Shown: in pieces, positions 1,374 to 63,665 of the stretch
Position numbering within the stretch: the first letter of the stretch is position 1
How the letters are laid out: every line of letters begins with the position of its first letter
From: Candidatus Campbellbacteria bacterium
GTDB taxonomy: Bacteria; Patescibacteriota; Minisyncoccia; Phycocordibacterales; EsbW-18
Reading direction: 5' to 3'
NCBI GenBank assembly: GCA_024653945.1
Contig: JANLIT010000002.1
Coordinates: 80,255-144,254 of the forward strand
Length of the DNA: 64,000 bases
Made by a program: the position numbers and the translations under genes
Notes under the pieces: generated by a model
The model's input: only the letters and a program-made list of their open reading frames with translations
Databases searched by the model: none
Told to the model about the DNA's origin: nothing

Positions 1374-1444
1374 TGCGGGATGCCGGAATCGGACCGGCGA
1401 CACCAGTTTGGAAAACTGGAGTTATGCCACTTAACTAATCCCGC
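1374..1444 (-). tRNA. tRNA-Gly (anticodon TCC)
   Basis: On the reverse complement the fold is: acceptor GCGGGAT/ATCCCGC; D-arm GTTA-AGTGGCA-TAAC; anticodon stem CCAGT/ACTGG with loop TTTCCAA (anticodon UCC); T-arm GCCGG-TCCGATT-CCGGC; discriminator A. CCA is not encoded. Confidence 0.75.
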
Positions 1445-1566
1445 CTTCGCTGCGCTTCGGCGGGTAAACCCGCCAGACAATATCCGAACAATACCTACTC
1501 AATGCACAAGCAACACGTAGAAGCATGGTACCAAAAAATTGAGAAACGACAACGCCTACCTACGCA

Positions 1567-1598
1567 GACGCGCCCGCCTCGTATGAGGTGGGCGCGTC
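1567..1598. terminator. 14-bp GC-rich hairpin downstream of the minus-strand acidic ORF
   Basis: Stem GACGCGCCCGCCTC/GAGGTGGGCGCGTC with loop GTAT. No U-run follows. Confidence 0.3.
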
Positions 1599-1622
1599 AA
1601 TCAAGAGTATGTAAAACGTGCA

Positions 1623-1784
1623 CTACTCAGCCGATGAGCCGTCAGCATCTGATTCATCCTCGTCCGCACCTTCTCCATCTTCACCAACCTCAGGTGCCTC
1701 ATCCTCGGGGTCGTTCTCAAGAGGCGTTGCCGCAGGACTTTCATCACCATCTGTTGGAAGTGTAATATCGTCTAAATCTGACAT
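1623..1784 (-). CDS. Small, highly acidic hypothetical protein (53 aa)
   Basis: Translated by hand from the minus strand as MSDLDDITLPTDGDESPAATPLENDPEDEAPEVGEDGEGADEDESDADGSSAE. It falls below the ORF-track length cutoff. Overlapping plus-strand ORFs look like low-complexity artefacts. Confidence 0.35.
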   Translation of the reverse strand: MSDLDDITLPTDGDESPAATPLENDPEDEAPEVGEDGEGADEDESDADGSSAE

Positions 1785-1829
1785 ATATACAATAGGTTAA
1801 TTGGCAATGGTATCCGCATGGTGCGAATT

Positions 1830-1849
1830 CCTGCCTGCCGGCAGGCAGG
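1830..1849. repeat. Perfect 20-bp GC palindrome CCTGCCTGCCGGCAGGCAGG, copy 1 of 2 (26 bp shared with 6636-6655 in inverted orientation)
   Basis: Exact match to 6636-6655, with shared flank AATT-palindrome-CG on opposite sides. It lies 43 bp upstream of the acidic ORF start. Confidence 0.6.
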
Positions 1850-1946
1850 CGCATGAGTATAGCAATGTGTCTGTGTTTGTCAACCAAAATCACCACCATG
1901 TTGCATCAGGGTAATTTTATGCGCCCTTATTTTCTTTATTTTTTAT

Positions 1947-2003
1947 CCCGTTAGAGAATATTTCAATACAACGTCTTGTGTGTCACCCAAGTTCTCTAAC
2001 GGG
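1947..2003. repeat. MITE-like inverted-repeat element, copy a (57 bp)
   Basis: Termini CCCGTTAGAGAA ... TTCTCTAACGGG. Flanked by TTTAT and ATTTAT. Ends 11 nt 3' of the stop of the DoxX-like gene. Confidence 0.55.
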
Positions 2004-2014
2004 ATTTATTACAT

Positions 2015-2395
2015 CTATCGAAACCACTCACGTAGTGTTCGTGGCCACGACAGCATCAACAAAAGTGCGAGAGGGGCTCCCCAGTTTGCAAATCGTTCAA
2101 TGAAATCCCAGATTGATTCTCCAACAATTGGACGAAGAAGTGCGGTCCAAAATCCCCACAACACTGCCCACAACAACACAACGCGAATTGGTTTGAGAAG
2201 AACAACAAGCGCAACAAACATATCAGCAACACCAATCAACATAAGAAGCGTTATTGCAGTACCGAGGTCAGCACCAGTTAATTTTTGTATCCAACCGAGC
2301 CACTGTTCTTTTCCATCAAGGGCTAACATACCATGACCAATAAATTCTCCAGCAACCGCAATTCGCAACACCCACTGAATAAGTTTTGTATTCAT
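2015..2395 (-). CDS. DoxX-like small integral membrane protein
   Basis: The ~127-aa product has 3-4 predicted TM helices (GHGMLAL...LIGVADMFVALVVLL...LWAVLWGFW). The start is taken at MNTKLIQ, whose ATG lies in the left flank of MITE copy b. The ORF track extends to 2443. Confidence 0.45.
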   Translation of the reverse strand: MNTKLIQWVLRIAVAGEFIGHGMLALDGKEQWLGWIQKLTGADLGTAITLLMLIGVADMFVALVVLLKPIRVVLLWAVLWGFWTALLRPIVGESIWDFIERFANWGAPLALLLMLSWPRTLREWFR

Positions 2396-2512
2396 CCCGT
2401 TTAGAGGCAGGTCGCGGTCATTGAAAATTTCCGAAACCTGCAAATTATTCTAGTAAAACAACTACTCATTATCCACCATACAATCCCGGAAGCGACCGCG
2501 GCCTCTAACGGG
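2396..2512. repeat. MITE-like inverted-repeat element, copy b (117 bp), with a perfect 6-bp flanking direct repeat ATTCAT
   Basis: Termini CCCGTTTAGAGGCAGGTCGCGGTC ... GACCGCGGCCTCTAACGGG form a ~22-bp imperfect inverted repeat. ATTCAT sits at 2390-2395 and again at 2513-2518. The left copy supplies the ATG of the DoxX-like gene. Confidence 0.6.
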
Positions 2513-2565
2513 ATTCATGTACTAAAAGTATTAAAAATAAACTACCACACCCAGTGTAGCCTTTC

Positions 2566-2931
2566 TTATTTTTTCTTCCTAGACACTGTGTGAATTGCTT
2601 TTAACACCCACTCTGTAAGCACTTCCCTATCTTCAAGCACGTCTGTGGGAACTTCATAATAGTTTTTCAGCACCTGCTCCTTGCTTGGACGAAAACAATC
2701 CATACCTACGTCAATAAATTTCTGTTTACTTTCGTTATCAGTTTTTACATACAGCACGTTATCAGAAATAATCGCAAAAAATATCCCCTCAGCATACAAA
2801 CCAAAACCACCAAACATTTTTCGTGCGGTTACGTCTGGAATAGCCATAAGCTGATCCAGCACAAAGTCTTTAAATGATTCGTCCACAAGTGTCGGGGCGC
2901 CGAGAATCGGACTCGGTCTATCTGCTCCCAA
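2566..2931 (-). CDS. TfoX/Sxy N-terminal-domain protein (competence-regulator family)
   Basis: KMFGGFGLYAEGIFFAIISDNVLYVKTD matches the TfoX_N hallmark (F.G.GL....fa.i....LYlk.d). Confidence 0.65.
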   Translation of the reverse strand: MGADRPSPILGAPTLVDESFKDFVLDQLMAIPDVTARKMFGGFGLYAEGIFFAIISDNVLYVKTDNESKQKFIDVGMDCFRPSKEQVLKNYYEVPTDVLEDREVLTEWVLKAIHTVSRKKK

Positions 2932-2996
2932 AGCAGACGTACTACCGGTATACTACGCCCCGTAACAAAAACAACAATATCATGTCTATACTGATT

Positions 2997-3401
2997 TTAA
3001 TAGACCCTTTCTTGTTTTATATCATTTTTTCTTTCTTCATCGTGCAATATTCGATGACAATTTGCACAAACAACTTCACATTTATTTATTTCCGACTTAA
3101 TACGCGAGAGACCGACCGCACGACGAAATGTTCCGACTGTAAATAATTTATCTTTTCCATTTTTGTGATGGAAATCAAGAACTCTTGGATCTCCAACTCC
3201 GCACCTACTACACCCTTTTTGTTGTTTGTATTCTAGAATTAATTGATAATAACGATTAATAAGCATTTGTTTTGTAATACGGTAACAATCGCGACACTTT
3301 CTGCGCCTGTACACTTTTTTCTCAGTCGTTAGAGCAACCCCAAAGAAGGACTCTGGGAGCGATTTTCCACAATATTTACAAACTTTTTCGCACTTTTTCA
3401 T
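2997..3401 (-). CDS. HNH endonuclease
   Basis: Cys-rich N-terminus plus DFHHKNGKDK...CEVVCANCHRILH, the HNH motif (His-Asn-His with Zn-binding Cys pairs). Confidence 0.8.
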   Translation of the reverse strand: MKKCEKVCKYCGKSLPESFFGVALTTEKKVYRRRKCRDCYRITKQMLINRYYQLILEYKQQKGCSRCGVGDPRVLDFHHKNGKDKLFTVGTFRRAVGLSRIKSEINKCEVVCANCHRILHDEERKNDIKQERVY

Positions 3402-3459
3402 GTCCCAATCCTAGCGCATCAAGATAAATTTGGGATAAAGTAAAGTATCCCAAATTTTT

Positions 3460-3530
3460 CGGGCCGTCGTATAGTGGCAGTACACAAGGCTGGGGGTCTT
3501 GTAGTGAGAGTTCGATTCTCTCCGGCCCGA
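3460..3530 (+). tRNA. tRNA-Pro (anticodon GGG)
   Basis: Acceptor CGGGCCG/CGGCCCG; D-arm GTAT-AGTGGCA-GTAC; anticodon stem CAAGG/TCTTG with loop CTGGGGG; T-arm GAGAG-TTCGATT-CTCTC; discriminator A followed by CC. Confidence 0.75.
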
Positions 3531-3538
3531 CCGTAGTT

Positions 3539-3958
3539 CTAAAGGACATTCTCAATGAAGAGTGTATGAGCTGTTTTGTCCTTTAGATTAAGTCGAATTG
3601 CCACAACATCTACCTGATACCGTGTTTCACGTGAAATATGTTTCTCAACTAGGTATGTCTGAATTGCCCTAGAAAGTCGCTCGAGCTTTTCACGCGTAAC
3701 GTGTTCCTCAGGTCTGATCATCGAGGTTAAACCTTGATAACCTGTTTCACGTGAAACGACACCGTTCCCTGTTTCGCATGAAACACATTTAACTTCAACA
3801 AATCTCAAAACTTTATTCTTTTGGGCAATAATATCTATCTCTCCCCATTTCTTTAGATAGTGTCTTTCTGTAATCTTAAAACCTCGTTTCACAAGAAACA
3901 GACACGCTAATTCTTCTCCTATTTTGCCTATTTTGATGTGTTTTGGGTCATTTTTCAT
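3539..3958 (-). CDS. YraN/UPF0102-family endonuclease-like protein carrying in-frame palindromic repeat insertions
   Basis: N-terminus GKIGEELACLFLVKRGFKI...WGEIDIIAQKNKVLRFVEVK and C-terminus RYQVDVVAI match UPF0102. The central part contains the repeated peptide VSRET, encoded by GTTTCACGTGAAAC palindromes. Confidence 0.6.
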   Translation of the reverse strand: MKNDPKHIKIGKIGEELACLFLVKRGFKITERHYLKKWGEIDIIAQKNKVLRFVEVKCVSCETGNGVVSRETGYQGLTSMIRPEEHVTREKLERLSRAIQTYLVEKHISRETRYQVDVVAIRLNLKDKTAHTLFIENVL

Positions 3959-4008
3959 GGAAAATAAGATTTCATGTGTAACAAATACCTATATGTTTCA
4001 CGTGAAAC
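3624..4008. repeat. Array of five copies of the 14-bp palindrome GTTTCACGTGAAAC (two exact, three 1-2 mismatch)
   Basis: Copies at 3624-3637 (GTTTCACGTGAAAT), 3744-3757 (exact), 3771-3784 (GTTTCGCATGAAAC), 3886-3899 (GTTTCACAAGAAAC) and 3995-4008 (exact, in the promoter region upstream of the YraN-like start). Confidence 0.7.
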
Positions 4009-4061
4009 ACTTATATCGGACATTATTAGAGACAAATTCTATAATATGGCTTAACTGGGCT

Positions 4062-4118
4062 ATTTTACACTGATATTTGCCTTTATTTTACACATGTCCA
4101 ATTGCCTGTCTTTTACAC
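4062..4118. repeat. Three iteron-like direct repeats (A)TTTTACAC spaced 23-25 bp apart
   Basis: ctATTTTACACtgatatttgcc, ttATTTTACACatgtccaattgcc and tcTTTTACACatatcc. They lie in the divergent region between the YraN-like gene and the tRNA cluster. Confidence 0.4.
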
Positions 4119-4285
4119 ATATCCCCGTTGTTGTCCACAGTTTTAGCCATTTTACCCTTTTAAAATAAAGTTTTCTTAAAGACATGGTTGTTTTGTCTTT
4201 ATAAAAATTTTATCTATTATCTTTTGGTCGAGAGTTGGTTAGAATTTGCTAAATTTTTTTATCTGATTTGCTCACAAAAAGATTA

Positions 4286-4317
4286 TTGACATACAAATTA
4301 TCGTATATTGTTATAAA
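4286..4317 (+). promoter_or_regulatory. Candidate promoter for the tRNA-Gly/tRNA-Arg transcription unit
   Basis: TTGACA at 4286-4291, with TGtTATAAA-like extended -10 elements downstream. The spacing is ambiguous. Confidence 0.3.
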
Positions 4318-4388
4318 CATATGGTAAATTCAGTGAAAATAGATATACTGTTCTTTGCGGTGGACTCGTCCGCCGAACAACGTGCAAG

Positions 4389-4459
4389 GCGGGCATGGTT
4401 TAGTGGTAGAACACGTCCTTGCCAAGGACGAGACGGGAGTTCGATTCTCCCTGCCCGCA
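4389..4459 (+). tRNA. tRNA-Gly (anticodon GCC)
   Basis: Acceptor GCGGGCA/TGCCCGC; D-arm GTTT-AGTGGTA-GAAC; anticodon stem CGTCC/GGACG with loop TTGCCAA; T-arm GGGAG-TTCGATT-CTCCC; discriminator A. Confidence 0.8.
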
Positions 4460-4498
4460 CACAGAAACAGGTTATAATAAATAAAGCTTATTAATGTT

Positions 4499-4570
4499 GC
4501 TCCCGTGGTGAAATGGATATCATGACAGGCTTCGAACCTGTTGTTGGGGGTTCGAATCCCTCCGGGAGCA
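4499..4570 (+). tRNA. tRNA-Arg (anticodon TCG)
   Basis: Acceptor GCTCCCG/CGGGAGC; D-arm GTGA-AATGGATA-TCAT; anticodon stem ACAGG/CCTGT with loop CTTCGAA; T-arm GGGGG-TTCGAAT-CCCTC; discriminator A. Confidence 0.7.
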
Positions 4571-7261: not shown

Positions 7262-8035
7262 CTACTTACTACTTACTTCTAACCCAACCGGGCAGTGATC
7301 GGAGCCGTACACATCCGAAAGTATTTCTGAACGTTTAATTTTTGGAAGAAGATTTTGAGAAACAATAAAGTAGTCCAATCGCCAACCAATATTTCTATCT
7401 CGTGCGCGAGAAATGGTATCCCAATATGAGTAGGCATTTTTTGTGTCGGGATGAAAATGTCGGAATGTGTCAACAAATCCGGCGGAGAGAACTTCATCCA
7501 TCCACGCGCGTTCTTCTGGCAAAAATCCAACGTGTCCTTCATTTTCTTTCGGTCGAGCAATGTCTATTTCTTCATGCGCGACATTGACGTCACCACAAAA
7601 AATCACCTTTTTGCCATTTTTCCTTAGTTTTTTAATGTGTTCCAAAAATGCGTCATAAAAATCAAGCTTGTACTGAAGCTTTTCTGGAGAACCCCCTCCG
7701 TTTGGAAAATAGACATTCAAAAGTACAAAATCTTCAAAAGCGGCTTCAATAAGACGTCCTTGGGTGTTGAACTTTTCAGGTAACACATCAAAAGAGACAC
7801 TTTTAGGCTCTTTTTTTGAGTACACGGCTACACCACTATATCCTTTTCGTTCTTTTGATGAGTTGAAATAGGCAAAATAACCTTCTGGCTTTTGAACTTC
7901 TGGAGAAAGTTGGCCTTCTTCTACTTTCGTTTCTTGAAGGCAAAAAATATCAGGTTTTTCTTGTTCAAACCAATCCCAATACCCTTGATTAAAGAGTGAG
8001 CGAAGTCCGTTTACATTCCACGAGATAATTCTCAT
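7262..8035 (-). CDS. xth: Exodeoxyribonuclease III (AP endonuclease)
   Basis: MRIISWNVNGLRS...IFCLQETK...GDVNVAHEEIDI...SDHCPV are the ExoIII/EEP signatures. The start is taken at MRIIS; the ORF track extends upstream to 8074. The ATG lies within the left flank of MITE copy c. The last four codons plus stop are encoded by CTACTTACTACTTAC. Confidence 0.85.
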   Translation of the reverse strand: MRIISWNVNGLRSLFNQGYWDWFEQEKPDIFCLQETKVEEGQLSPEVQKPEGYFAYFNSSKERKGYSGVAVYSKKEPKSVSFDVLPEKFNTQGRLIEAAFEDFVLLNVYFPNGGGSPEKLQYKLDFYDAFLEHIKKLRKNGKKVIFCGDVNVAHEEIDIARPKENEGHVGFLPEERAWMDEVLSAGFVDTFRHFHPDTKNAYSYWDTISRARDRNIGWRLDYFIVSQNLLPKIKRSEILSDVYGSDHCPVGLEVSSK

Positions 8036-8154
8036 CCCGTTAGAGATAGGAAATGCGGGGCATTTCCGTATCATGTTTATCTTTCTTTAAAAATTCGACC
8101 ATGTTTTTAATTCTCCACACATCGCCCGTTCAAAACTGAGAGATCTCTAACGGG
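8036..8154. repeat. MITE-like inverted-repeat element, copy c (119 bp)
   Basis: Termini CCCGTTAGAGATAGG ... GAGATCTCTAACGGG. Flanks are TTCTCAT and ACTCAT (shared CTCAT). There is an internal hairpin GGAAATGCGGGGCATTTCC. It starts immediately after the xth ATG. Confidence 0.6.
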
Positions 8155-8297
8155 ACTCATACAATGATTGTATCCAGCACTAAACGTTTCTCCAAATGCA
8201 CTGGAGCATTTAGTGCTGGATGTACTTTCTGATACAATACACGTGCTTATAACATTATTATTTAAATACATTTGGAGGTCTGGCCTCCCAAAAACAT

Positions 8298-8582
8298 ATG
8301 ATGAAAGGAAAATGTGGAGTGGCAAAAATTATTTGGATTTTGATTATTGTTGGAGCAATTAACTGGGGTCTTGTAGGTCTCGGTGGATTCTTCCAGAGTA
8401 ACTGGAACATCGTCAACCTTATTTTTGGCAGTTTGGGATGGTGGGTTGAGGGTGTTGTCTACGTTCTCGTCGGAGTAGCCGGTGTTATGTCACTCTTTCA
8501 CTGTAAGTGTGCGAAATGTAGTACGTGTGAATCATGTGGTGCAAACAACATGAAAAAGGAAGTGCCAATGCAACAGATGTAA
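8298..8582 (+). CDS. DUF378-family small membrane protein with a C-terminal Cys-rich tail
   Basis: IWILIIVGAINWGLVGL...VVYVLVGVAGV is the DUF378 hallmark (two TM helices). The tail CKCAKCSTCESC is unusual for the family. Confidence 0.55.
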   Translation: MMKGKCGVAKIIWILIIVGAINWGLVGLGGFFQSNWNIVNLIFGSLGWWVEGVVYVLVGVAGVMSLFHCKCAKCSTCESCGANNMKKEVPMQQM

Positions 8583-8590
8583 TTCAGAAA

Positions 8591-8626
8591 AGACCGGACC
8601 TCCTCTTGGAGGTCCGGTCTTTTTTA
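8591..8626 (+). terminator. Rho-independent terminator after the DUF378 gene
   Basis: Stem AGACCGGACCTCC/GGAGGTCCGGTCT with loop TCTT, then TTTTTT. A second GC hairpin at 8627-8668 faces the convergent minus-strand gene. Confidence 0.7.
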
Positions 8627-8688
8627 TAACAACACCCCGCTCGAGTACGAGCGGGGTGTTGTGTTGTTATTGGAACTTTTAGGAGAAA

Positions 8689-11127
8689 CTAATTACTATA
8701 CTTAGTTAGTGGCACTGTTCCGTTTGTTGGTTGTGAATACAGTGTTTGAATTACACAACTAGTGTATGTGAGCCAAGAACTCAACATGGTGTCAGCACCT
8801 ATAACTTGTGTTCCGCTGACTTGTAATGTTGGAAGGTGGCAACCTGGAACCTCACCTCCACCCCCACCTCCGTCTCCGGGAGGAACTGGGGGTACCGGTG
8901 GTCCCACTGGCACCACATTACTATCAAAGAGATACGCGTTACGTATACCTCCGGCCATTATTTTTCCCTGCGGAGTCATAAAGAGGTGTAAAGGTTGTCC
9001 TGCCGATTCACCTATACTGGCTGTTCCATAATCTCGGCGTAGAGGTGCTTCTGCGACACCGGCAAGCGTGCCGTCGTGCCACAAGGTGAAATATCTCTCA
9101 TCAATACCCGGATAACCAGCAAACACCAGGTATGAGCCGGCAACCGCAAAAGCAGGAAATATGGCCATGTCTCGTCTGTTGATATTTGTAAGAACGCTTT
9201 CTGGTACTGTCAATTCTCCTGCAGGTTCCAATCCGTTTGCGCCACTCGTAAAAAGAAAAATTCGATTTGAGTAATTAAGATTTCTTCCCGACTGGCCAGT
9301 GTGTGAAGTCACCGCCAAGCGTTTTGGAGTAGATGTGTAATCAATTGCCACTCTTCCGGGACACAAATTATCCGGCAGTGTTAGTTCTTGTACTGATGTG
9401 ATCCCACCGTCTGATTCGGCTCTGAAAACAGTTGGCGTATACGAGACTGGGGTAGTACACCTGTCAGATGAATTTCCTACGCGTCCAAGTATGTAATCTC
9501 CAAAACCCACAAGAGGTCTCAGCGAGTGTTCCTCTCGCTCCGCAAGTATCTGGAGTGATGGTGTGGAAAGGGTTACATCTCTACCACTGTTTCCATCAAG
9601 ACCAACTTGTACGTTACCGATTACTTTGCCATTGGCGGCGGCAAAGTTACTGTTGCGAATAATAAAATTTGATGAGGGTGAGAAAAGTACACCCCCCCCA
9701 GAAACTTGATAATATCCCGCGTGTTCGGCTCCCGCTCCATACGTATTTCCCGAGACACTTCCACCGTTCGAGCGAACTGCCATAAAAAATCCTCTATCAC
9801 CATCGGCAACCATTTGAGATTCGGCATTTCCGTGGAAGAACAGCGTCTGAAACCTCGAACCACCATCCATGCAAAGATCACGTTGAGAAATAAGTGTACC
9901 ATCATCTTTAAAGAACCACGCTCCACCTTGTCGAAAAGGTGGATATGAGCTCAAGTAATTTTGATCTTTAGGACCACCACACGCACCAGAGAATGCGAAC
10001 GCACCGTTTGCATATGCTGCACTTTGGATATTCTGAGTGCCAAATCTTGGTCCTGGATACACCATTAAATTAGGTAGATCAAGCAGTGTCGCAACAAGCG
10101 GTAATCGCAAACCCGCCTCTGGCGCAGCAACAAAAGGCACTTCAAGATCACAGTGACGCGTTCCGTGAGAATTTGAAACCGTCATAGTAAAGACAGTGTC
10201 TTTTGTTATTGGTCCAGTTACAATACTGCCTGTTTGTTGAGAGTCCGCACGTGCAGGATCTGGAGCACCAACAGTTGGTGTACCTGAAGGAGTAGCTGGA
10301 GCATCATCAGCTTCTATTGAAATAGTTGTTGGTAAATATCCCACGGTGTACGCGAGCGTTACCGTTCCCCCCGTTGCTGTTTCCGGATTACTTCTCATTT
10401 GACAATTTGGTGCGTGGGGAGAGGGTGGTGCACCAGAAGTAACAGTTAAATTTGATGATATGGTGAGGCCGGCATACATGGCGTTAATCTGCGCAACACC
10501 CGCATGAAGTCCCAAAATTTCTTGTAGATTTCCACCGTGAGGAGAACCTGCGTTGTGAATAATCGTACCTTCCTGTGGAGAAGAAAATGTTGTGTAGCCA
10601 CTCACATCATTCCAACTCCCTCCATCGGCACTATATTCGGAACCAAAAATAGCGGGGTTACTACCGGCCTGCACCGTTTGAGGCGCTGGGTTCATGCGCA
10701 AAGATGGCCCGCCAGATGGAGCCGCTGGTTCATACCCAAGAAAAAACAATATTGAAGTTTCAAAAGGACATTGAATTGTTGCGGTTGGGGGATTACCTGC
10801 ATTAATCAACACAAGACGAGAGGTTCCAGCCATTGGCTCTACATCAATACGATATCCCCCAGGAGGTAATGGGGCACCACTATTTGTTGTGTTAACACTC
10901 TGAAAGGTTTGACCATTTCCTGGGAAAAAACGTGATGAGGAAATGACGGTCCCAGCGGGTCCTGTGATAGTAAAGGCGGGGTATGTGTTGAGAGGAAGTT
11001 GGCTACGTGAAAAACCGACACTAATATGATTACATGCATCCACAGCTGATGCGTTTTGAATATTAAACGACGCAAACCCAACAACGCTCAGAGCGACGAC
11101 AGCTATTCCAAGGAGATATTTTTTCAT
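8689..11127 (-). CDS. Large secreted protein (812 aa), possibly beta-helix/adhesin-like
   Basis: Signal peptide MKKYLLGIAVVALSVVGFASFNIQNASA. Gly/Ser/Asn-rich with repeated NG/SG motifs and a C-terminal PPVPPVPPGDGGGGGG linker. Function unknown. Confidence 0.6.
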   Translation of the reverse strand: MKKYLLGIAVVALSVVGFASFNIQNASAVDACNHISVGFSRSQLPLNTYPAFTITGPAGTVISSSRFFPGNGQTFQSVNTTNSGAPLPPGGYRIDVEPMAGTSRLVLINAGNPPTATIQCPFETSILFFLGYEPAAPSGGPSLRMNPAPQTVQAGSNPAIFGSEYSADGGSWNDVSGYTTFSSPQEGTIIHNAGSPHGGNLQEILGLHAGVAQINAMYAGLTISSNLTVTSGAPPSPHAPNCQMRSNPETATGGTVTLAYTVGYLPTTISIEADDAPATPSGTPTVGAPDPARADSQQTGSIVTGPITKDTVFTMTVSNSHGTRHCDLEVPFVAAPEAGLRLPLVATLLDLPNLMVYPGPRFGTQNIQSAAYANGAFAFSGACGGPKDQNYLSSYPPFRQGGAWFFKDDGTLISQRDLCMDGGSRFQTLFFHGNAESQMVADGDRGFFMAVRSNGGSVSGNTYGAGAEHAGYYQVSGGGVLFSPSSNFIIRNSNFAAANGKVIGNVQVGLDGNSGRDVTLSTPSLQILAEREEHSLRPLVGFGDYILGRVGNSSDRCTTPVSYTPTVFRAESDGGITSVQELTLPDNLCPGRVAIDYTSTPKRLAVTSHTGQSGRNLNYSNRIFLFTSGANGLEPAGELTVPESVLTNINRRDMAIFPAFAVAGSYLVFAGYPGIDERYFTLWHDGTLAGVAEAPLRRDYGTASIGESAGQPLHLFMTPQGKIMAGGIRNAYLFDSNVVPVGPPVPPVPPGDGGGGGGEVPGCHLPTLQVSGTQVIGADTMLSSWLTYTSCVIQTLYSQPTNGTVPLTKYSN

Positions 11128-11157
11128 GAGTATATATTACTAATAGTTCTTTACATT

Positions 11158-12090
11158 CTACTCTTTTTCGCGATTAGTGTGAAACTTGCTGTGGACTTCT
11201 TTGAGGTGTTTGTCCGTCACGTGTGTATAAATTTGCGTCGTGGTGATGTTAGCGTGACCAAGAAGCGCTTGTACGCTTCGTAAATCGGCACCATTCTCCA
11301 GTAGATCAGTGGCAAATGAGTGGCGAATGACGTGTGGTGTTACTTTTTTGCTAATACCAACCTTAATCGCATATCGTTTTACCAATCTTTCAACAGAGCG
11401 CGCGGTGAGACGCAAATCTTTTGCATTCTTTGACGCTTTTCCAAACTGAATGAACATCGCATCATCCATGTCGGTTCGTTTCTTCAAATAGTCGTTGACG
11501 GCATCACGCGCGGAAGGGGAGACAAACACAACACGCACCTTTTCACCTTTTCCACGAATGGAAAATTCCCCGCGTGACAAATCAATATCTCGAGGAAGTG
11601 ACACCAGCTCTGACACGCGCATGCCTGTTGAAAAAAGAAGTTCCAATAATGCCTTATCACGAAGAGCGCCGACCAAATCGCCCTCGGGCGCTTTCATAAT
11701 GCGGACCAATTCAACTGGCGTAATCAAATCAAGGTCGCGATCTCCGACTTTTGCGAGTTCAATGGCTTCTGGTTGGAGTGTTGTAATGTTTCGTTTGCGT
11801 AAAAATTTCAAGAATGCCCGTAAGGCAATCAAATAATAATTTTGTGTGTTCTTTTTGAGCGTTCCGCTGTTTTGTGCTTCATGTTTCATGGTTCGTGCCT
11901 GCTGACGATTGAGCCACAAACGAAACTCGCGCACGGATGTTTCGGTGATATCAACAGGTTTAGAAATCTTAGAAAAACCAACAAATCTTGAGAGGTACCT
12001 ATCATAGTTTTCAATCGTCTTGGTAGAGCGCCCACGTTCAATCTCAAGGTATTCAAGAAATTCGTGTTTTAATTTTTCAACAGGGTTCAT
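11158..12090 (-). CDS. Tyrosine recombinase, XerC/XerD family
   Basis: N-terminal SAM-like domain (EFLEYLEIERGRSTKTIENY), catalytic LRHSFATDLLENGADLRSVQALLGHANITTTQIYTHV, R..H..RY motifs. The ATG lies within the left flank of MITE copy d. Confidence 0.85.
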   Translation of the reverse strand: MNPVEKLKHEFLEYLEIERGRSTKTIENYDRYLSRFVGFSKISKPVDITETSVREFRLWLNRQQARTMKHEAQNSGTLKKNTQNYYLIALRAFLKFLRKRNITTLQPEAIELAKVGDRDLDLITPVELVRIMKAPEGDLVGALRDKALLELLFSTGMRVSELVSLPRDIDLSRGEFSIRGKGEKVRVVFVSPSARDAVNDYLKKRTDMDDAMFIQFGKASKNAKDLRLTARSVERLVKRYAIKVGISKKVTPHVIRHSFATDLLENGADLRSVQALLGHANITTTQIYTHVTDKHLKEVHSKFHTNREKE

Positions 12091-12208
12091 CGCACTAGAG
12101 ATAGAAAACGTGAAACGTTTTCGTGGTTATATTGGTAATGTACAAATCAATACACACATTTTTTGTTCGAGTAAGAGTGGTTTTCATAACTGAGAAATCT
12201 CTAATGTG
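12091..12208. repeat. MITE-like element, degenerate copy d (118 bp)
   Basis: CGCACTAGAGATAGAAAACGTGAAACGTTTTC ... CTGAGAAATCTCTAATGTG, homologous to copy c (8036-8154). Flanked by TTCAT (12086-12090) and ATTCAT (12209-12214). Confidence 0.5.
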
Positions 12209-12274
12209 ATTCATACTCCCTATTCTCCCGCACTTTCTAGTGTCGCACAATATTATTTTGCGCAACTTCTCTGC

Positions 12275-25264: not shown

Positions 25265-25373
25265 TTTTTCTTTCTACTTTTTACATACTACTGATTTTAT
25301 CCTTGGTATTTGTTTCGAATTTCGATATTCGGATTTTCATTGGTTATTGTTACTTGGCCCTTGGTTATTCCAA
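25265..25373 (+). repeat. ~110-bp upstream repeat, copy 1 (homologous to 29781-29890), containing a tandem (ATTTCG)n-like tract
   Basis: TTTTTCTTTCTACTTTTTACATACTACT...TTTCGAATTTCGATATTCGGATTTTCATTGGTTATTG..TTGG..TTATT aligns with 29781-29890. It ends ~40 bp before the comM GTG start. Confidence 0.6.
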
Positions 25374-25409
25374 GATTTTATCCTTCCTTTATCTCAAAAG
25401 GATAAAATC
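25374..25409 (+). promoter_or_regulatory. Hairpin GATTTTATCC...GGATAAAATC enclosing the only SD-like AAAGGA upstream of comM
   Basis: 10-bp arms at 25374-25383 and 25400-25409. A third GATTTTATCC lies at 25293-25302. Confidence 0.3.
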
Positions 25410-46262: not shown

Positions 46263-47168
46263 ATGCGTATACTCACTAGAAAAAATGTTGTCTTTGTTTT
46301 AACTCTTGTCGTTTTCCTTGTACCCATCTTTTTTATTCATGCCGCAACAGAACCATACACACTTCTTGTCAATGATATTCCGGGTCTTGGAGAGACGGTA
46401 ACACCTGGTGCGGGAGGTGGGGTGGGTGCATATCTCAATACCATTTTTAGAATAGGTCTGGGTATTGCCGTAACACTTGCCATTCTTATGTTTGTCTACA
46501 ACGGAGTCATCTACATGACATCCGACATTGTTGGAAACAAAGAGGGTGCAAAAAAAGCATTCTTGAGTATTTTAGGAGGGCTCGTGCTTGTATTTAGCTC
46601 TGTGCTTATTCTTGAGGTCATCAATCCCCAACTTGTTAACTTTGGAATCTTTGAAACACTAGGAGCAATTGAACCCGCACCAGGTGGCGGGGGTGGGGGC
46701 GGAACGCCTCCTCCCCCTGGAGGGGATGGAACAACCGACCCCGCCATGGAAACCAGTGCTCGTGCATATTTAGATGCTAACCATATCACCGTAAATCAAG
46801 CCGCCTGTACTCCTGGACAAGGGGCTCCAAGTTGTATAAACGTTGGTGACATGTCGACACCTGTTGCACATCAACTTGTCGCTTTGGCTGAAGCCTGTGG
46901 ATGCAACATAAACATCACAGGTGGAACAGAGCGGGGTCACACAACACACGGACCAGACAAACCTATGTATGATTTTAGTAAAAAAATAATAAACGGCCAG
47001 ACACCGCCTATTACCACCTACCTTGAGGGCCTGCAAAAAGTGAAGGTGGTCGGTGGCGGACAAGTATATACTGATGGAACGAGTGAGTTCTGGGATGAGC
47101 CCGCAAATCCGGGTAGCAATTGGGGTTCACACTGGCATGCGTGTATTGGAACAACGTGTCGTTTTTAA
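46263..47168 (+). CDS. Pilin-like (TrbC/VirB2-like double-TM) N-terminus fused to a Cys/His-rich C-terminal domain
   Basis: Signal anchor plus a second hydrophobic segment (FRIGLGIAVTLAILMFVYNG...SILGGLVLVFSSVLILEVI). G/P-rich linker. C-terminus with CTPGQGAPSC, ACGC, HTTHG, HWHAC resembles a zinc-hydrolase fold. Confidence 0.35.
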   Translation: MRILTRKNVVFVLTLVVFLVPIFFIHAATEPYTLLVNDIPGLGETVTPGAGGGVGAYLNTIFRIGLGIAVTLAILMFVYNGVIYMTSDIVGNKEGAKKAFLSILGGLVLVFSSVLILEVINPQLVNFGIFETLGAIEPAPGGGGGGGTPPPPGGDGTTDPAMETSARAYLDANHITVNQAACTPGQGAPSCINVGDMSTPVAHQLVALAEACGCNINITGGTERGHTTHGPDKPMYDFSKKIINGQTPPITTYLEGLQKVKVVGGGQVYTDGTSEFWDEPANPGSNWGSHWHACIGTTCRF

Positions 47169-49974: not shown

Positions 49975-51339
49975 ATGAACATCACACCAACAGACACAAA
50001 AACATTATGGAAAGAAGTTCTTGGAATGATAGAGCTAACGGTGTCTAAGGCGGTATTTCGGACATGGTTTAAAGACACCCACATCGTCAAGGTAGAGGAC
50101 GGGGTGGTATTTGTGGGTGTTCCAAACCTCTTTGCAAAGGATTGGGTGTCTGAAAAACACCACAAAATGATATTGAAGAGCCTCCGTGACATATCAGACA
50201 CCATTCGGTCTGTTGAATACATCATTTCTACAAAAGCACCAAGTGAGACCAAGATACAATCATATACTCAGGTTTCCCCCGGAAACTCGCCCGACGAACT
50301 TCCTCTACGAGACCTCTACATCAATAAATTAGACAACCTTAACCCGCGATACACCTTTGACACGTTTGTGGTTGGGTCATTCAACGAGCTCGCCTATGCG
50401 GCCGCACAGGCGATTTTAGAGCGCCCCGGAACACGATATAACCCATTTTTTGTGTACGGGCAGACCGGTCACGGGAAAACACACCTTATTCAAGCAGTGG
50501 GAAACGAGATGCGAAAAAAATATCCGGACAAAAAAGTGTACTACGTAACATCTGAACGATTTGCACAAGATCTTGTCAATTCAATTCAACTTAATACAAC
50601 AAGTAATTTTAAAGAAAAATATAGAAAGTTTGATGTGTTAATTATGGATGATGTCCAATTTCTTTCAAATAAAGAAAAAATGCAGGAGGAGCTCTTCCAT
50701 TTATTTAATGAAATTTATGATAAAAATGGTCAAATTATCTTTTCCTCGGATAGACACCCTAACTATATACAAAGCCTTGCTGAACGTCTTAAATCACGCT
50801 TTAACGCTGGTATGACGGTGGATATACCGGCGCCTGATTCTGAGTCACGAATGGCGATTGTAAAAACGAAAGCGGCTGAAAATAATATTGTGTTGTCTGA
50901 TGAGATTGTAACCTACCTATCACACTCCATGGATGGAAACATTCGGGAGATTGAGGGGGCGCTTAACTCAATTATGTGCCAAATTTTACTCAAAAAGAGA
51001 GATTTAAGCCTTCAAGAAATTAAAGAGGTGGTTAAAAACAATATAAAACCGAAAAAAATGGTTGCTGTGAAGGATGTGGTAAAGATTGTTGCTGGTTTTT
51101 ACAATCTTGATGAAGAAAGTATTTATAAAAAGAGTCGTAAAAAAGAAGTGGTAAAACCACGGCAGGTAATTATGTATATTCTTCGTGAAGATTTTGCACT
51201 ACCATATCCAACCATTGGTCAAAAACTTGGTGGGAGAGACCACACAACGGTTATTCATTCGTATGAAAAAATTAAAAGGGAATTAGAAACAGATCATCAG
51301 TTGGGCCAAGAATTAACTCAGGTTCGTGCGATGTTATAG
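49975..51339 (+). CDS. dnaA: Chromosomal replication initiator protein DnaA
   Basis: Walker A GQTGHGKTHL, box VII, and the C-terminal DNA-binding HTH (GQKLGGRDHTTVIHSYEKI). Confidence 0.92.
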   Translation: MNITPTDTKTLWKEVLGMIELTVSKAVFRTWFKDTHIVKVEDGVVFVGVPNLFAKDWVSEKHHKMILKSLRDISDTIRSVEYIISTKAPSETKIQSYTQVSPGNSPDELPLRDLYINKLDNLNPRYTFDTFVVGSFNELAYAAAQAILERPGTRYNPFFVYGQTGHGKTHLIQAVGNEMRKKYPDKKVYYVTSERFAQDLVNSIQLNTTSNFKEKYRKFDVLIMDDVQFLSNKEKMQEELFHLFNEIYDKNGQIIFSSDRHPNYIQSLAERLKSRFNAGMTVDIPAPDSESRMAIVKTKAAENNIVLSDEIVTYLSHSMDGNIREIEGALNSIMCQILLKKRDLSLQEIKEVVKNNIKPKKMVAVKDVVKIVAGFYNLDEESIYKKSRKKEVVKPRQVIMYILREDFALPYPTIGQKLGGRDHTTVIHSYEKIKRELETDHQLGQELTQVRAML

Positions 51340-52935: not shown

Positions 52936-52945
52936 GTGTATTTAT

Positions 52946-53031
52946 CCCGTTAGAGAATACCCCGTAGCAAACCACGGGGCTTATGTTGTACGAGCGCGGG
53001 GTCTAGTCCCCCGTGTAAGTTCTCTAGCGGG
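52946..53031. repeat. MITE-like inverted-repeat element, copy e (86 bp)
   Basis: CCCGTTAGAGAATACCCCGTAGC ... TTCTCTAGCGGG, with an internal CCCCGTAGCAAACCACGGGG hairpin. Flanked by ATTTAT and ACTTAT. It ends 3 nt before the stop of the minus-strand PBP gene. Confidence 0.55.
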
Positions 53032-53033
53032 AC

Positions 53034-55520
53034 TTATTTAAGTGAAAATGATTTTGTGACACCAACCTTACTGCCATCTGTTTTGTGGAAGATAAAATAG
53101 AGTGCGTTTTCTTCCTCGAGTGTTAAATCTGAATCAATAGGAAACGAGAGGGAGTACGAACCGCGAACAACATCAGGAACCACGGTATTATTTATTAACA
53201 CCTCGGTCTGGTTATTATTATAGCCAGCAGGGAGTGTGAGTCTAAGAGAAATAGTGTCGTCTTTTTGATAGGATGACTTAAGTCCAGTTATACCAATATC
53301 TCCTGAGGTAGCCCCGGTGTCCGAGTTTGATGTAGAAAGTGGTGTGTTGGTAATAATTTTTACACCAGATGAATATCCGTTTTGTGCTGCCCACGCGCGT
53401 ACGGGGTACTCCCAGTATGCGTATTGAGGGTCATTTGAGGGATTGCTTGGAGCAGGGCCGGTTGGGTCGTCGGTATTTATCCAATGAAGAACATCATGCA
53501 CATTTTGGGTCACCTCAATTTTACGAAATGCATCAGGGGTATTGTTTTTTGCGGGACTGCCTGTTCGTGAATCTATTTCTTGAGTATCTCCTCCTTGCCA
53601 AATACCCAAGAGAACGGGTTTGTTTGAGGTTGATTTTTCTGGACTTGAAAAATGTGAGTCGGGATATTTTTGTAAAGCTACGTCCATAAAACGGTGCCAC
53701 AGTGGGGCAATAACAAATCCAGCAACCTTTTTGTCAATAGGTGTGTTGTCGTTGTTTCCTCCCCACGCACCAACGGCAATGTTCGGTGTATATCCGATAA
53801 TCCACACATCACGGTAGTCATTTGTGGTTCCCGTTTTTACCGCAACATCAGTACTTGGAAAATATAACGCAGACGCTGCTCCAAACGACGGTGTGCGTGC
53901 GATATTGTCAGACAAGATGCTTGATATTTGTCGTGCAATATTTTGCTCCAATACACGAGAGGGGTGTTCAGAAAATTGTTCAAGCACAGTCCCATCAGAA
54001 CGTTCAACTTTGAGAATAGATTTTGTTTCGTTGCGTATGCCCCCATTACCAAACACACCGTATGCACTTGTAAGGTCCAGTAAGGTTACTTCTCCACCAC
54101 CAAGCACCAACGTGAGACCGTATCGTGACGCGTCTGCAAGTGTTGAAATGCCCATATCTCGGGCGGTCTTAATAGATGCAGTAATTCCAGCAAGATAGAG
54201 TGCTTTCACCGCAGGAATGTTAATTGACTGTGCAAGTGCGCTGCGAATACTTATTGGTCCACGAAACTTGGAATCGTAGTTTTCAGGATAGTAACAAGGT
54301 GTTGCACTTTTTGTACTTGTTACGGGGCACGCAGTTGAAAATTGTGTTGGAAGATCAAAGAGAACTGTTTCAGGTGTGATTCCTTTTTTAAAAGCGGTTG
54401 CATAGACAAATGGTTTGAACGCAGACCCAGGTTGTCGTTTTGCCGTCGCGATGTTTACATTTCCATCTATTGCGGTATCAAAATAATCACGTGAACCAAC
54501 CATGACAAGAATCTGACCAGTTTTTGGGTCAACGGCAACGAGACCAGCATTTTCTGCTTTAAATTTTGCTTCGTTTTCTAGCGCCCCCTCCCGTACAATT
54601 TCCTCTGCCTGTTCCTGTAATTCATAATCAAGTGTTGTAATGACACGCAGCCCATCTTCTTCAAGTGCGTTTTGTCCATACTTTTGCTCAAGGTATTGAA
54701 GAATATAAAAAACAAAATGAGGCGCAAGGAGTCCTTTTTCTGGACGAGGTTTAAACTCCACCTTTTCTATTTTTGCAGTGTCATACTCTTCTTGTGTAAT
54801 AAATTTGTCTTCAAGCATTCGGCTTAACACAAGATTTTTTCTATCCTCAAGCTTGTCTACGTTGTCACCATACGGAGAATAAAACGTTGGGGCTTGAGGA
54901 AGTGCGGCGAGATATGCAGATTCAGACAAAGTAATTTCTGAGGCATCTTTATGAAAAAAAGTACGACTGGCTTCTTCAACACCATACACACTTCCTCCAT
55001 ATGGTGTTTCATTGAGATACAATGCAAGAATTTCTTCCTTGGAAAGATTTTGTTCCAACTTAAGGGCGAGAACCCACTCTTTTAGTTTTCGTGAAATAGT
55101 TTTTTCTTGTGTAAGGAGAGAGTTTTTTACAACTTGTTGAGTAATAGTAGAACCGCCCTGGCTGTACTGAAGGGAAAGAATATTAACAAGAACTGCTCGA
55201 AAAAGGGAACTCCACTTAATGCCGTGGTGCTGATAAAACTCAGCATCTTCAATAGCAACGGTTGCGTTTTTGACGTTTCGAGAAATTTGGTCAAATGGAA
55301 TAACGGTGCGTTGAATATTTTCATGGAGGTCATACAGAAGGACCTCGCCGGTGCGGTCATATATTTTTGTTGACTGCTGGACCTTTCGCTCTTCAAACAC
55401 ATCAAAATCAGGCAATCGCAATGAGGCGGCCCAAAACAAGACAACCCCAGCACCCAAGGCGCCGAGACCAAGAAGCAAGAGTGCTGCTGTGTAGTACGGG
55501 TGGTGTTTCTTACGAGTCAT
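53034..55520 (-). CDS. Class A penicillin-binding protein (glycosyltransferase GT51 + transpeptidase) with a C-terminal extension
   Basis: N-terminal TM. GT51 motifs (EDAEFYQHHG, GGSTITQQ). Transpeptidase SGSAFKPF, SLN and KTG motifs. Extra ~200-aa C-terminal domain. Confidence 0.88.
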   Translation of the reverse strand: MTRKKHHPYYTAALLLLGLGALGAGVVLFWAASLRLPDFDVFEERKVQQSTKIYDRTGEVLLYDLHENIQRTVIPFDQISRNVKNATVAIEDAEFYQHHGIKWSSLFRAVLVNILSLQYSQGGSTITQQVVKNSLLTQEKTISRKLKEWVLALKLEQNLSKEEILALYLNETPYGGSVYGVEEASRTFFHKDASEITLSESAYLAALPQAPTFYSPYGDNVDKLEDRKNLVLSRMLEDKFITQEEYDTAKIEKVEFKPRPEKGLLAPHFVFYILQYLEQKYGQNALEEDGLRVITTLDYELQEQAEEIVREGALENEAKFKAENAGLVAVDPKTGQILVMVGSRDYFDTAIDGNVNIATAKRQPGSAFKPFVYATAFKKGITPETVLFDLPTQFSTACPVTSTKSATPCYYPENYDSKFRGPISIRSALAQSINIPAVKALYLAGITASIKTARDMGISTLADASRYGLTLVLGGGEVTLLDLTSAYGVFGNGGIRNETKSILKVERSDGTVLEQFSEHPSRVLEQNIARQISSILSDNIARTPSFGAASALYFPSTDVAVKTGTTNDYRDVWIIGYTPNIAVGAWGGNNDNTPIDKKVAGFVIAPLWHRFMDVALQKYPDSHFSSPEKSTSNKPVLLGIWQGGDTQEIDSRTGSPAKNNTPDAFRKIEVTQNVHDVLHWINTDDPTGPAPSNPSNDPQYAYWEYPVRAWAAQNGYSSGVKIITNTPLSTSNSDTGATSGDIGITGLKSSYQKDDTISLRLTLPAGYNNNQTEVLINNTVVPDVVRGSYSLSFPIDSDLTLEEENALYFIFHKTDGSKVGVTKSFSLK

Positions 55521-61255: not shown

Positions 61256-61316
61256 AGGAGTATGTGCCCATTTTACAGGGTATTTTGATGTGGTCCAAGA
61301 TAAAACTTTAACGGGC

Positions 61317-61345
61317 TTGACATTCTCAATCAAGTATGCTAGGAT
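61317..61345 (+). promoter_or_regulatory. Sigma70-type promoter TTGACA-17-TAGGAT driving an unannotated plus-strand transcript
   Basis: cTTGACAttctcaatcaagtatgcTAGGATact. Confidence 0.45.
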
Positions 61346-61351
61346 ACTGTT

Positions 61352-61658
61352 GTTCTTTTCAGAAGCGGTTTCAGTAAGGGGTGGCGCACGGAAAGTCCTC
61401 TCAAGAGGAACGAATATTTTCTCGTGCTTACTTAACAGACAGGCGAGAAACCTCTAAGCAAACGTCATGGTCACATGCACAAAGTCGGTGAGGACCCGTT
61501 GGTTGTCTCGATCTCGCATCGAGGTAGCGAACAGTATCCTGAACAGATAATGTGGTTTTGCTTAGAGATTTCTCTTCTGTTAACCTACCCTTTATACTAC
61601 TCGTTATTAAGAAATAAGGAAAGCCACACCATATACTGCGGTGTGGCTTTCTTGTTTT
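61352..61658 (+). ncRNA. Candidate ~300-nt structured ncRNA of unknown identity
   Basis: Bounded by the promoter at 61317 and the terminator at 61621-61658 (AAGCCACACC...GGTGTGGCTT plus a U-run). It contains GGAAAGUCC (61389-61397) and ACAGAUAAUGUGGUUUUGCUUA near the 3' end, faint RNase P RNA-like motifs. It has no long ORF. Confidence 0.35.
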
Positions 61659-63465: not shown

Positions 63466-63665
63466 TACCTATAGTTTACCCCGTGAGATACACACTGACT
63501 ATACCTTGTGTGGCTTATGACTCGTACACACTCTTTAAAACGCTTTCAACAACATGCAAATAAAATATCTCACGGGGCGTACCTGGGTATCATGTCGTAG
63601 AAAGTACACCATATTCCCACCCTTCATCAATGAGTGAGTATTTTTGGGGGTGGTACAATAGGGTC

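Follow-up and report, generated by a model that had tools for sequence, protein, structure and literature searches.

Miniature inverted-repeat elements at start codons in a Candidatus Campbellbacteria genome and their probable descent from a small GIY-YIG nuclease-encoding element

A 64-kb stretch of a Candidatus Campbellbacteria metagenome-assembled genome (MAG), referred to here as the window, carries seven copies of one element of 59–121 bp bounded by terminal inverted repeats (TIRs). The copies, lettered a to g, were found by motif and inverted-repeat searches (Table 1). Three of them lie exactly at start codons: copy c at the ATG of xth, the gene for exodeoxyribonuclease III; copy d at the ATG of a gene for an Xer-like tyrosine recombinase, whose open reading frame (ORF) matches the Pfam Phage_integrase and SAM-like domains; and copy b at the ATG of an ORF for a 126-aa membrane protein. 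A preliminary description of this DNA had placed the insertions at these positions, between each gene's upstream signals and its ATG. Its coordinates are confirmed on the sequence, and so is the placement, by TIRs and target duplications at all three genes and by empty sites at two. The DoxX-like identity it gave to the 126-aa protein corresponds in Pfam only to a sub-threshold match (E 0.025). Why should copies of one element sit so precisely where translation begins? We argue below that the window copies are likely to be non-coding, internally deleted derivatives, similar to miniature inverted-repeat transposable elements, or MITEs, of a mobile element of ~280 bp that encodes a GIY-YIG nuclease.

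At xth, the proximal duplication together with T8035 yields the start codon, and Pfam Exo_endo_phos spans residues 4–247 of the ORF begun at this junction ATG. Beyond the far end of copy c, A8160...G8155 reads ATGAGT, the orphaned duplicate of the original xth start codon, which opens an upstream ORF (uORF) of 17 codons. The public annotation of Xth (P0001, 270 aa) begins at an ATG inside the element (8072–8074), 13 codons before the conserved MRIISWNVNG N-terminus. We compared the syntenic DUF378–xth–CCA-enzyme loci of three relatives, L121, L123 and L125 (Xth 85%, 79% and 72% identical), none of which has the element at xth. With a slash marking the insertion point, L121 reads ...GGATATAGTTATCAC/ATGCGTATC and the window ...GGATACAATCATTGT/ATGAGT[121 bp]ATGAGAATT. 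For the recombinase, the empty site of L123 is ...AATAGGAGT/ATGAAAGAT and the occupied site ...AATAGGGAGT/ATGAAT[120 bp]ATGAACCCT. These empty sites confirm that the xth and recombinase copies are true insertions, exactly at the ATG.

Table 1. Element copies in the window with their duplications and hairpins, the three genes that start at a copy, and the -10-like hexamer of xth.
Feature	Position	Strand	Details
Copy a	1946-2004		59 bp; duplication TTTA at 1942-45 and 2005-08
Copy b	2395-2513	minus	119 bp; duplication TTCA at 2391-94 and 2514-17; long-TIR variant with GACCGCGGTC palindrome
Copy c	8035-8155	minus	121 bp; termini T-CCCGTTAGAGAT...ATCTCTAACGGG-A; gene-proximal end is 8035
Copy c, proximal duplication	8031-8034	minus	CTCA on plus, TGAG on minus
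Copy c, distal duplication	8156-8159	minus	TGAG on minus
Copy c, subterminal hairpin	8049-8067	minus	GGAAATGC-GGG-GCATTTCC
Copy d	12090-12209	minus	120 bp; degenerate termini T-CGCACTAGAG...CTCTAATGTG-A; duplication TTCA at 12086-89 and 12210-13
Copy d, hairpin	12104-12122	minus	
Copy e	52945-53032		88 bp; flanks TTTA (52941-44) and CTTA (53033-36)
Copy f	61217-61316	minus	100 bp; G...C termini; duplication TTGA at 61213-16 and 61317-20
Copy g	63479-63577	minus	99 bp; variant termini C-CCCGTGAGAT...ATCTCACGGG-G; poor duplication, TTTA vs CGTA
126-aa membrane-protein ORF	2015-2395	minus	ATG at 2393-2395 (copy b)
xth	7262-8035	minus	257 aa from true ATG at 8033-8035 (copy c)
Xer-like tyrosine recombinase gene	11158-12090	minus	ATG at 12088-12090 (copy d)
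-10-like hexamer TACAAT	8167-8172	minus	6 nt upstream of distal ATG of xth

To define the element beyond the window, species-representative genomes were scanned with the two 10-bp termini only, set 39–99 nt apart. At least 120 loci were obtained, where ~33 matches are expected by chance in 596 Gb; among the matches listed they fall mostly in the candidate phyla radiation (CPR, Patescibacteria) and in Omnitrophota, and some come from Planctomycetota, Nitrospirota and other groups. Metagenome contigs were scanned independently, with the hairpin-bearing end alone as pattern and the flanks unconstrained; this yielded 109 distinct copies. The start-codon pattern described below is drawn from >240 loci in total, in CPR, Omnitrophota and other phyla. 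Flank statistics (n=132) show direct repeats of the four bases adjoining the termini in 70–82% of copies. No repeat is seen at the position directly beyond the 10-mer, where the two ends carry complementary bases in 94% of copies vs 48% expected; two more inner variable positions also keep complementarity, the variable positions being complementary in 88–94% of copies. The TIR is 13 bp long, Y-CCCGTTAGAG-RY...RY-CTCTAACGGG-R, and the target duplication is 4 bp, with the consensus TNNA in the context R/TNNA/Y. It is perfect in 80/132 copies of the genome scan and in 67/109 of the metagenome scan, compared with ~1/256 by chance. Because a 4-bp duplication is followed by a complementary terminal pair, the rebuilt ATG owes its A to the terminal base of the element, and the target contributes the TG alone. 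The flanking TCAT had been thought to supply the whole ATG; this is true of the TG, not of the A, and the duplication read as ATTCAT at copy b shrinks to TTCA. Elements with C...G termini turn the host start into GTG, the distal copy retaining ATG (L019, L047, L090, L105 and L109). The window copies show every feature of a MITE that can be tested on sequence, namely TIRs, a duplication, empty sites (for c and d), small size, a non-coding interior, several copies and, outside the window, a longer partner with the same ends (below). Their interiors are mostly unrelated, the best pairs being 64–66% identical.

How strong is the association with start codons? In the window, 3/7 copies lie on them (P ~0.01 against a null of 7.2%, the proportion of start codons among R/TNNA sites outside coding interiors, counted in 876 kb of the same DNA; among ATGRR sites counted likewise the proportion is 40%). 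The enrichment extends beyond the window in both collection scans. In the genome scan, 51/130 copies (39%) adjoin an ORF of at least 70 codons that opens with the junction ATG or GTG, and in most of these the upstream frame closes within ~20 codons. A subfamily of ~112–121 bp with a hairpin beside one repeat is ~85% at starts, with a polarity of 31–32 : 3. The metagenome scan places a gene start at the hairpin end in 82/109 copies (75%) and at the other end in 4, or ~20:1. There is a target sequence preference: in element orientation the metagenome duplications are TGAA in 53 copies, TGGA in 22, TGAG in 8 and TGAC in 5, vs TTCA in 2, and the second codon of the host gene is RRN at 93% of sites vs 40% in the background. 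TTAA, TATA and TGCA, the palindromic or AT-rich forms of TNNA, are rare as duplications of T...A-type elements. Shorter subfamilies with the same repeats are located elsewhere and have the flanks GTTTAC, GTAAAC or GTTGAC. A leaderless transcription start was considered as the true target and was rejected, many sites being operon-internal stop/start junctions.

What, then, is the parent of these copies? Among the metagenome hits, coding sequence lay between the arms of the apparent hairpin in L165 (210 bp) and L172 (280 bp). Full-length elements, in which the same repeats enclose one ORF, are present in L172, L137, L003, L046 and L247. The ORF has the form MFYTYVIQS...DLRKRLKQHNEGK...LIYYEAC...REKYLKSGMGKRYLKNRLRHFLSLTG, and 4/4 tested examples match the Pfam family GIY-YIG (PF01541; E 1e-14 to 5e-18, 53.9–65.5 bits at a cut-off of 22.6). 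The repeats form part of the reading frame. Its final residues (F L S L T G) are encoded by six codons that make up the proximal repeat; translation ends at the TGA of the duplication, which overlaps the rebuilt host ATG as A-TGA, or, in C...G/TAAA copies, at the flanking TAA. Many copies keep the frame open from the distal, host-derived ATG, and ATG AAT CCC GTT AGA GAT is read as M N P V R D. The nuclease ORF is co-oriented with the host gene.

A protein search with the element nuclease retrieved 4415 homologues. Among these, in the best 120 clusters, the protein has 86 aa in 50 cases and 95 aa in 54; 105 end in ...FLSLTG, ~55 begin with MNPVRD, and PF01541 is precomputed for all 120. The catalytic residues Y14, G27, R35, H39 and E59 are invariant among 35 sequences, and Y25 is at least 90% conserved. 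With 86–95 aa the protein consists of the catalytic domain only and has no C-terminal DNA-binding domain; its nearest solved relatives are the UPF0213 protein BH0048 (1zg2, E 1.4e-8) and SLX1 chains. Four genomic contexts were obtained, each with the GIY-YIG ORF between host genes in the same orientation. In L247 and L256 it shares 4-nt ATGA overlaps with its neighbours (Ham1, GIY and a 67-aa gene; ScpB, GIY and Peptidase_S11). The nuclease P0130 is indexed in 204 collection blocks, and the 24 contigs examined reduce to 3 loci that share one set of neighbouring genes.

Each of three other repeat families encloses a GIY-YIG ORF of its own, within L070:2690-3030 and L098:4050-4780. Their TIRs are CCCCCACACCTAATTTGC, CCCCGCACCTATTAAGCAC and CTCTTCACCCC, and their copies are not at start codons. 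Duplications in these families are TCAA (L070, first-listed TIR) and TTGA (L098, 4075-4308, third-listed TIR); for the CCCCGCACC... element (L098, 4488-4736) only a 3-bp repeat, TAG, is readable. A more distant GIY-YIG ORF without these repeats was seen in a Wolfebacteria MAG (L016:2150-2560), between duplicated tRNA 5' fragments and an intact tRNA, an arrangement that may represent a different GIY-YIG insertion type targeting tRNA genes.

Taking out of the full element the ~160 bp that separate the two arms of a 15-bp internal inverted repeat (codons RKRLKQ and NRLRHF) gives the 120-bp form; L165 represents an intermediate stage of deletion, and the hairpin of copy c is a remnant of that internal repeat. 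Over the first ~30 nt, in which the ORF's own AGTTATG lies, and again over the last ~30 nt, window copies and full-length elements agree. Deletion between the internal repeats leaves the hairpin at the gene-proximal repeat, and hence a fixed polarity. The polarity of the miniature copies therefore follows from descent from a co-oriented GIY-YIG ORF and not from a shared regulatory function. The common post-transcriptional control suggested for the three window genes finds no support: the copies are <66% alike and have no Rfam match. A reverse-orientation terminator was also considered as the cause of the polarity; in reverse, however, the U-rich tract after the hairpin is weak, and the idea was superseded by the ORF-derived polarity. 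Near-identical miniature copies occupy different sites of one contig in L011 (97–100%), L074 (98%) and L083 (94%), and in L074 both copies lie at ATGGAT, the same tetranucleotide being kept within the lineage. Miniature and full-length copies occur together in L003, L046 and L137. Taken with the near-identical copies, this co-occurrence suggests mobilisation in trans. In the Omnitrophota MAG L003 (3774-4159), a miniature copy of ~105 bp is nested in a full-length GIY-YIG element and interrupts it; the flanks of this inner copy, GTTTAC and GTAAAC, are reverse complements and not direct repeats.

How might such an element move, and why to start codons? The main lineage inserts at A/TGRR, in other words at start codons and in the direction of the host gene, and TGRR is duplicated. 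The distal duplicate retains the host ATG with all upstream signals, and in many copies becomes the start of the nuclease ORF. At the proximal end the host start is rebuilt from the element's terminal A, or G for GTG, and the TG of the target. The element would thus borrow the expression signals of its host gene and then pass translation on to it. We incline, without great conviction, to the view that the GIY-YIG nuclease is the mobility enzyme. It would probably cut with a 4-nt stagger at both junctions and at the target, producing non-palindromic cohesive ends; the geometry suggests an analogy to piggyBac. Non-palindromic 4-nt ends would explain orientation specificity, the inheritance of a tetranucleotide within a lineage and, possibly, precise excision. 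Miniature copies would be mobilised in trans, and the host genes that bear them would still be expressed through read-through transcription, with translation beginning or re-initiating at the rebuilt ATG. The bias would be increased by selection, both for expression of the nuclease and for survival of the host gene.

A -10-like hexamer lies 6–7 nt upstream of the xth ATG in all three element-free relatives; in the window it precedes the distal ATG (Table 1), and the recombinase shows the same arrangement with a hexamer at 12220-12225. Judged by this spacing, xth was probably leaderless before the insertion, and both genes look leaderless, with the element apparently inserted between -10 box and start. 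Since these hexamers lie upstream of the distal ATG copy, the element is expected to be transcribed as a leader at xth and the recombinase gene. TANNNT-N6-ATG is the commonest spacing in the window, TANNNT being found exactly 6 nt before the ATG of many genes, among them those at 3401, 11127, 33922, 45548, 49218 and 57337, and a Shine-Dalgarno motif is found in only 12/79 long window ORFs; together these figures suggest widespread leaderless mRNAs in this Campbellbacteria genome. The predicted RNA of copy c folds with a 14-bp terminal stem (z = -4.0). In copy d the uORF from the distal ATG crosses the element and terminates at a TAG, 4 nt short of the recombinase ATG. Together with the enrichment of such open frames among the copies, this layout suggests that ribosomes starting at the distal AUG may open the stem and re-initiate at the rebuilt ATG. 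Obligatory uORF coupling was rejected as a rule: open frames are enriched and not universal (16/43), and there is no length periodicity.

Several points weigh against a GIY-YIG nuclease as the mover and against the scheme of expression just outlined. To our knowledge no GIY-YIG enzyme performs transposition; GIY-YIG nucleases usually leave short 3' overhangs, and a 4-bp duplication is a classic DDE signature. A catalytic domain of 86 aa has no DNA-binding domain with which to recognise repeats or target. No full-length GIY-YIG copy was detected by tblastn within the 64-kb window, which leaves a partner in this genome hypothetical. Among the full-length copies, some (L137, L003) are without a clean duplication or use an out-of-frame ATG of their own, and the interiors of the window copies beyond ~30 nt per end align weakly to the full-length element (z 1.5–3.5 vs shuffles). 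In the predicted transcript the rebuilt AUG stands at the foot of a 13–14-bp terminal stem. An internal sigma-70 promoter, or a -10 box spaced to give leaderless initiation at the rebuilt ATG, gave no consistent match, the upstream sequence being TRYCTCTAACGGG, and no Shine-Dalgarno sequence was found in the proximal end. Finally, a frame that stays open from the distal ATG across the element is present in just 16/43 copies, copy d among them; such frames finish 4 nt before the host ATG or overlap it, and occur at about twice the rate of other frames (~16%).

Could another enzyme move the element? The copies might be ordinary MITEs moved in trans by a DDE transposase, for example of IS1380/piggyBac type, with the GIY-YIG ORF as a passenger or captured gene. 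TIRs combined with a 4-bp duplication are what such an enzyme classically leaves, and the CCC...GGG termini with a 4-bp TNNA duplication resemble piggyBac, which has a TTAA duplication and CCC/GGG as its first TIR bases. Distant prokaryotic relatives of piggyBac are the IS1380 transposases (PMC10140906). Yet no transposase appeared between or beside the repeats in ~1.7 Mb of flanks: solo repeats, repeat pairs 300–4000 bp apart and the clustering of 533 neighbouring ORFs led to housekeeping genes only. The repeats, moreover, are part of the GIY-YIG coding sequence in 105/120 of the best homologue clusters, a 280-bp element has no room for a second gene, and repeated independent capture is implausible, given three other repeat families that enclose GIY-YIG ORFs of their own. 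We regard a DDE parent as unlikely. GIY-YIG enzymes are also the classic homing nucleases, and the element might spread by double-strand-break repair instead of cut-and-paste, through gene conversion from genome to genome, such as after DNA uptake; the duplication would then be microhomology at a preferred cut site, and the repeats would serve RNA or DNA structure, or expression. The window does encode competence-type functions (TfoX_N, T2SSE), and one element with identical context recurs in very many samples (P0130). Homing, however, makes no duplications that co-vary with the second codon of the host, whereas here one lineage has reached many genes unrelated to one another, with a 4-bp duplication particular to every site, and near-identical miniature copies occupy different sites of one contig; nor does a protein of 86 aa possess a domain for recognising a long target. 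This explanation strikes us as quite improbable.

Must start codons be a target at all? A simple preference for (A/T)TCAT, combined with the loss of intragenic insertions, could put copies on starts by accident, where they would then act as shared 5' leaders. The preliminary description had reasoned from such a preference, and correctly in so far as the preferred sequence contains ATG on one strand (TGAA, TGGA, TGAG); the RRN second codons at 93% of host sites fit it, as does the 40% share of start codons among ATGRR sites outside coding interiors, against which the 3/7 of the window is not significant. But a symmetric preference predicts 7–40% at starts and no polarity, and is therefore insufficient for the 75–85% at starts and ~20:1 polarity that are seen, the metagenome count of 82:4 included. 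It also sits badly with the rarity of TTAA, TATA and TGCA for T...A-type elements and with other subfamilies that, in the same genomes and with the same repeats, sit elsewhere; as shared leaders, the copies are too dissimilar and match no RNA family. We think accident very unlikely. A structured cis-regulatory RNA, either a riboswitch-like or a thermosensor leader that is not mobile, would account for a strong terminal stem, a hairpin with compensatory changes and a 3' end that is always at the AUG. It is contradicted by the empty sites in close relatives and by flanking repeats that duplicate each host gene's own first codons; the interior, besides, is unconserved, and longer versions encode protein. 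With Rfam 15, only 5 tRNAs in the whole window reached the gathering score, and the best weak match on copy c had E 1.6. We give a regulatory RNA almost no credence.

Two site-specific recombination readings had been raised by the variable interiors and the neighbouring recombinase, and both were rejected. An integron attC site has the reverse order of arms. An Xer core site would have a 6-bp overlap, where the statistics of the flanks point to a 4-bp duplication with a complementary terminal pair, and the recombinase is a conserved, syntenic chromosomal gene; an exact-protein look-up of it gave no match. Inspection for an IS200/IS605-like internal guide complementary to the duplication revealed none.

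The remaining window copies occupy other positions relative to genes. Between copy g and the ATG (63463-65) of a T2SSE/PilB-like ATPase gene, which it precedes, there are 13 nt. Copy f has entered ruvB 3 nt into the gene: the native GAGA ATG/TCAA/GT CCC TCC AAA is split, and the start codon is severed from the ORF (61213-61333). The ruvB ORF remains open across the 100 bp of the copy, with an in-frame ATG inside the element 13 codons upstream of Ser2; copies c and f thus share one geometry, an in-frame in-element ATG 13 codons before the host N-terminus. Copies a and e are at stop codons. The right flank of e (CTTA) holds the TAA of the gene for a penicillin-binding protein (PBP, 53034-55520, minus strand), and copy a lies 6 nt past the stop codon (2015-2017) of the 126-aa ORF, a gene bracketed by two elements since copy b is at its start. 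The window also contains repeats of other kinds. A palindromic motif, TGTTTCACGTGAAAC, recurs at least 3 times (~3624, 3745 and 3995; span 3624-4009) in the tRNA-rich region 1374-4570. Between the divergent genes DUF378 and xth, just upstream of the -10-like box of xth, lies a hairpin with an 11-bp stem, CCAGCACTAAA...TTTAGTGCTGG (8172-8221), and the sequence around it is partly conserved in the relative L121. Four more inverted-repeat pairs of 9–13 bp, unrelated to the CCCGTTAGAG family, are found at 25293-25409, 46402-46686, 50856-51107 and 61341-61540.

We know of no established class of prokaryotic transposon that uses anything other than DDE/DEDD, HUH, serine or tyrosine recombinases, or Cas1. 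Tentatively, and with some reserve, we suggest that the GIY-YIG element could belong to an unrecognised class of prokaryotic transposable element; at ~280 bp it would be the smallest autonomous DNA transposon known, a cut-and-paste start-codon parasite with miniature copies by the thousands across CPR, Omnitrophota and other phyla. If this were true, a minimal GIY-YIG nuclease would offer a new enzymatic route to transposition, linking homing endonucleases and transposons. The start-codon habit itself illustrates a selfish-element strategy suited to genomes with almost no intergenic DNA, in which the start is duplicated, signals are borrowed and the host gene is kept translatable. The element also suggests a possible function for many small genes of CPR bacteria annotated as 'GIY-YIG nuclease family protein', and a tiny nuclease with a defined cut geometry could interest biotechnology. 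For annotation the consequences are more immediate. Gene callers are misled: the public annotation gives xth 13 codons too many, and calls of many GIY-YIG ORFs differ in whether they include the MNPVRD extension. In some host genes the start shifts from ATG to GTG, and N-termini can be split or extended, as in ruvB.

Is the element already known under another name? In the literature searched, neither these repeats nor any GIY-YIG element bounded by repeats was found described, and this is apparently a very widespread, undescribed mobile element. GIY-YIG ORFs in non-intron insertions of CPR rRNA genes have been remarked to seem outside homing (PMC11270868), and GIY-YIG proteins are among the genes exchanged by Patescibacteria (PMC12455944). 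The closest sequence relatives, UPF0213 (YhbQ/BH0048) and SLX1, are likewise single-domain nucleases of ~90–100 aa, and SLX1 is structure-specific; they are regarded as cellular repair factors, whereas a repeat-bounded, duplication-flanked, multi-copy organisation was not found described for them in the literature searched. Free-standing GIY-YIG homing genes (T4 seg/mob, I-TevI relatives) are similarly selfish, have a GIY-YIG nuclease as sole product, lie between host genes and depend on host transcription. In contrast to the present element they have neither TIRs nor a duplication, encode proteins of 200+ aa with DNA-binding domains and long targets, and have no miniature non-coding copies. 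IS200/IS605 elements with their palindrome-associated transposable elements (PATE), and the repetitive extragenic palindromes (REP) with their REP-associated tyrosine transposases (RAYT; REPIN), share very small size, hairpin-forming ends, trans-mobilised derivatives and orientation-specific insertion by a short motif. These depend on HUH (Y1) transposases and have no duplication and no true TIRs, whereas in our element the duplication is clear and no HUH gene was seen. Rickettsia palindromic elements, too, are palindromic, miniature and tolerated in or at the coding sequence of small genomes, as copy f is in ruvB; unlike the copies described here they insert within ORFs and keep the frame, and neither an autonomous partner nor a specificity for start codons is known for them. 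The resemblance to piggyBac and IS1380 extends to a 4-bp T..A duplication, to CCC...GGG termini and to TIRs that are short and accompanied by asymmetric subterminal inverted repeats (PMC10140906), and is a resemblance only: no DDE/DDD transposase was found here, the target is TNNA (TGAA, TGGA, TAAA) and not TTAA, and the element is ten times smaller. Bacterial MITEs such as the Correia elements of Neisseria (CREE) are likewise non-coding, 60–120 bp long, bounded by TIRs and short duplications and present in many copies near gene ends, and their transcripts too would fold into a long terminal stem. Here, however, the parent is a 280-bp element encoding only a GIY-YIG protein, not an insertion sequence with a DDE transposase, the duplication is TNNA and not TA, and one subfamily sits exactly on start codons, with a fixed polarity and the ATG rebuilt.

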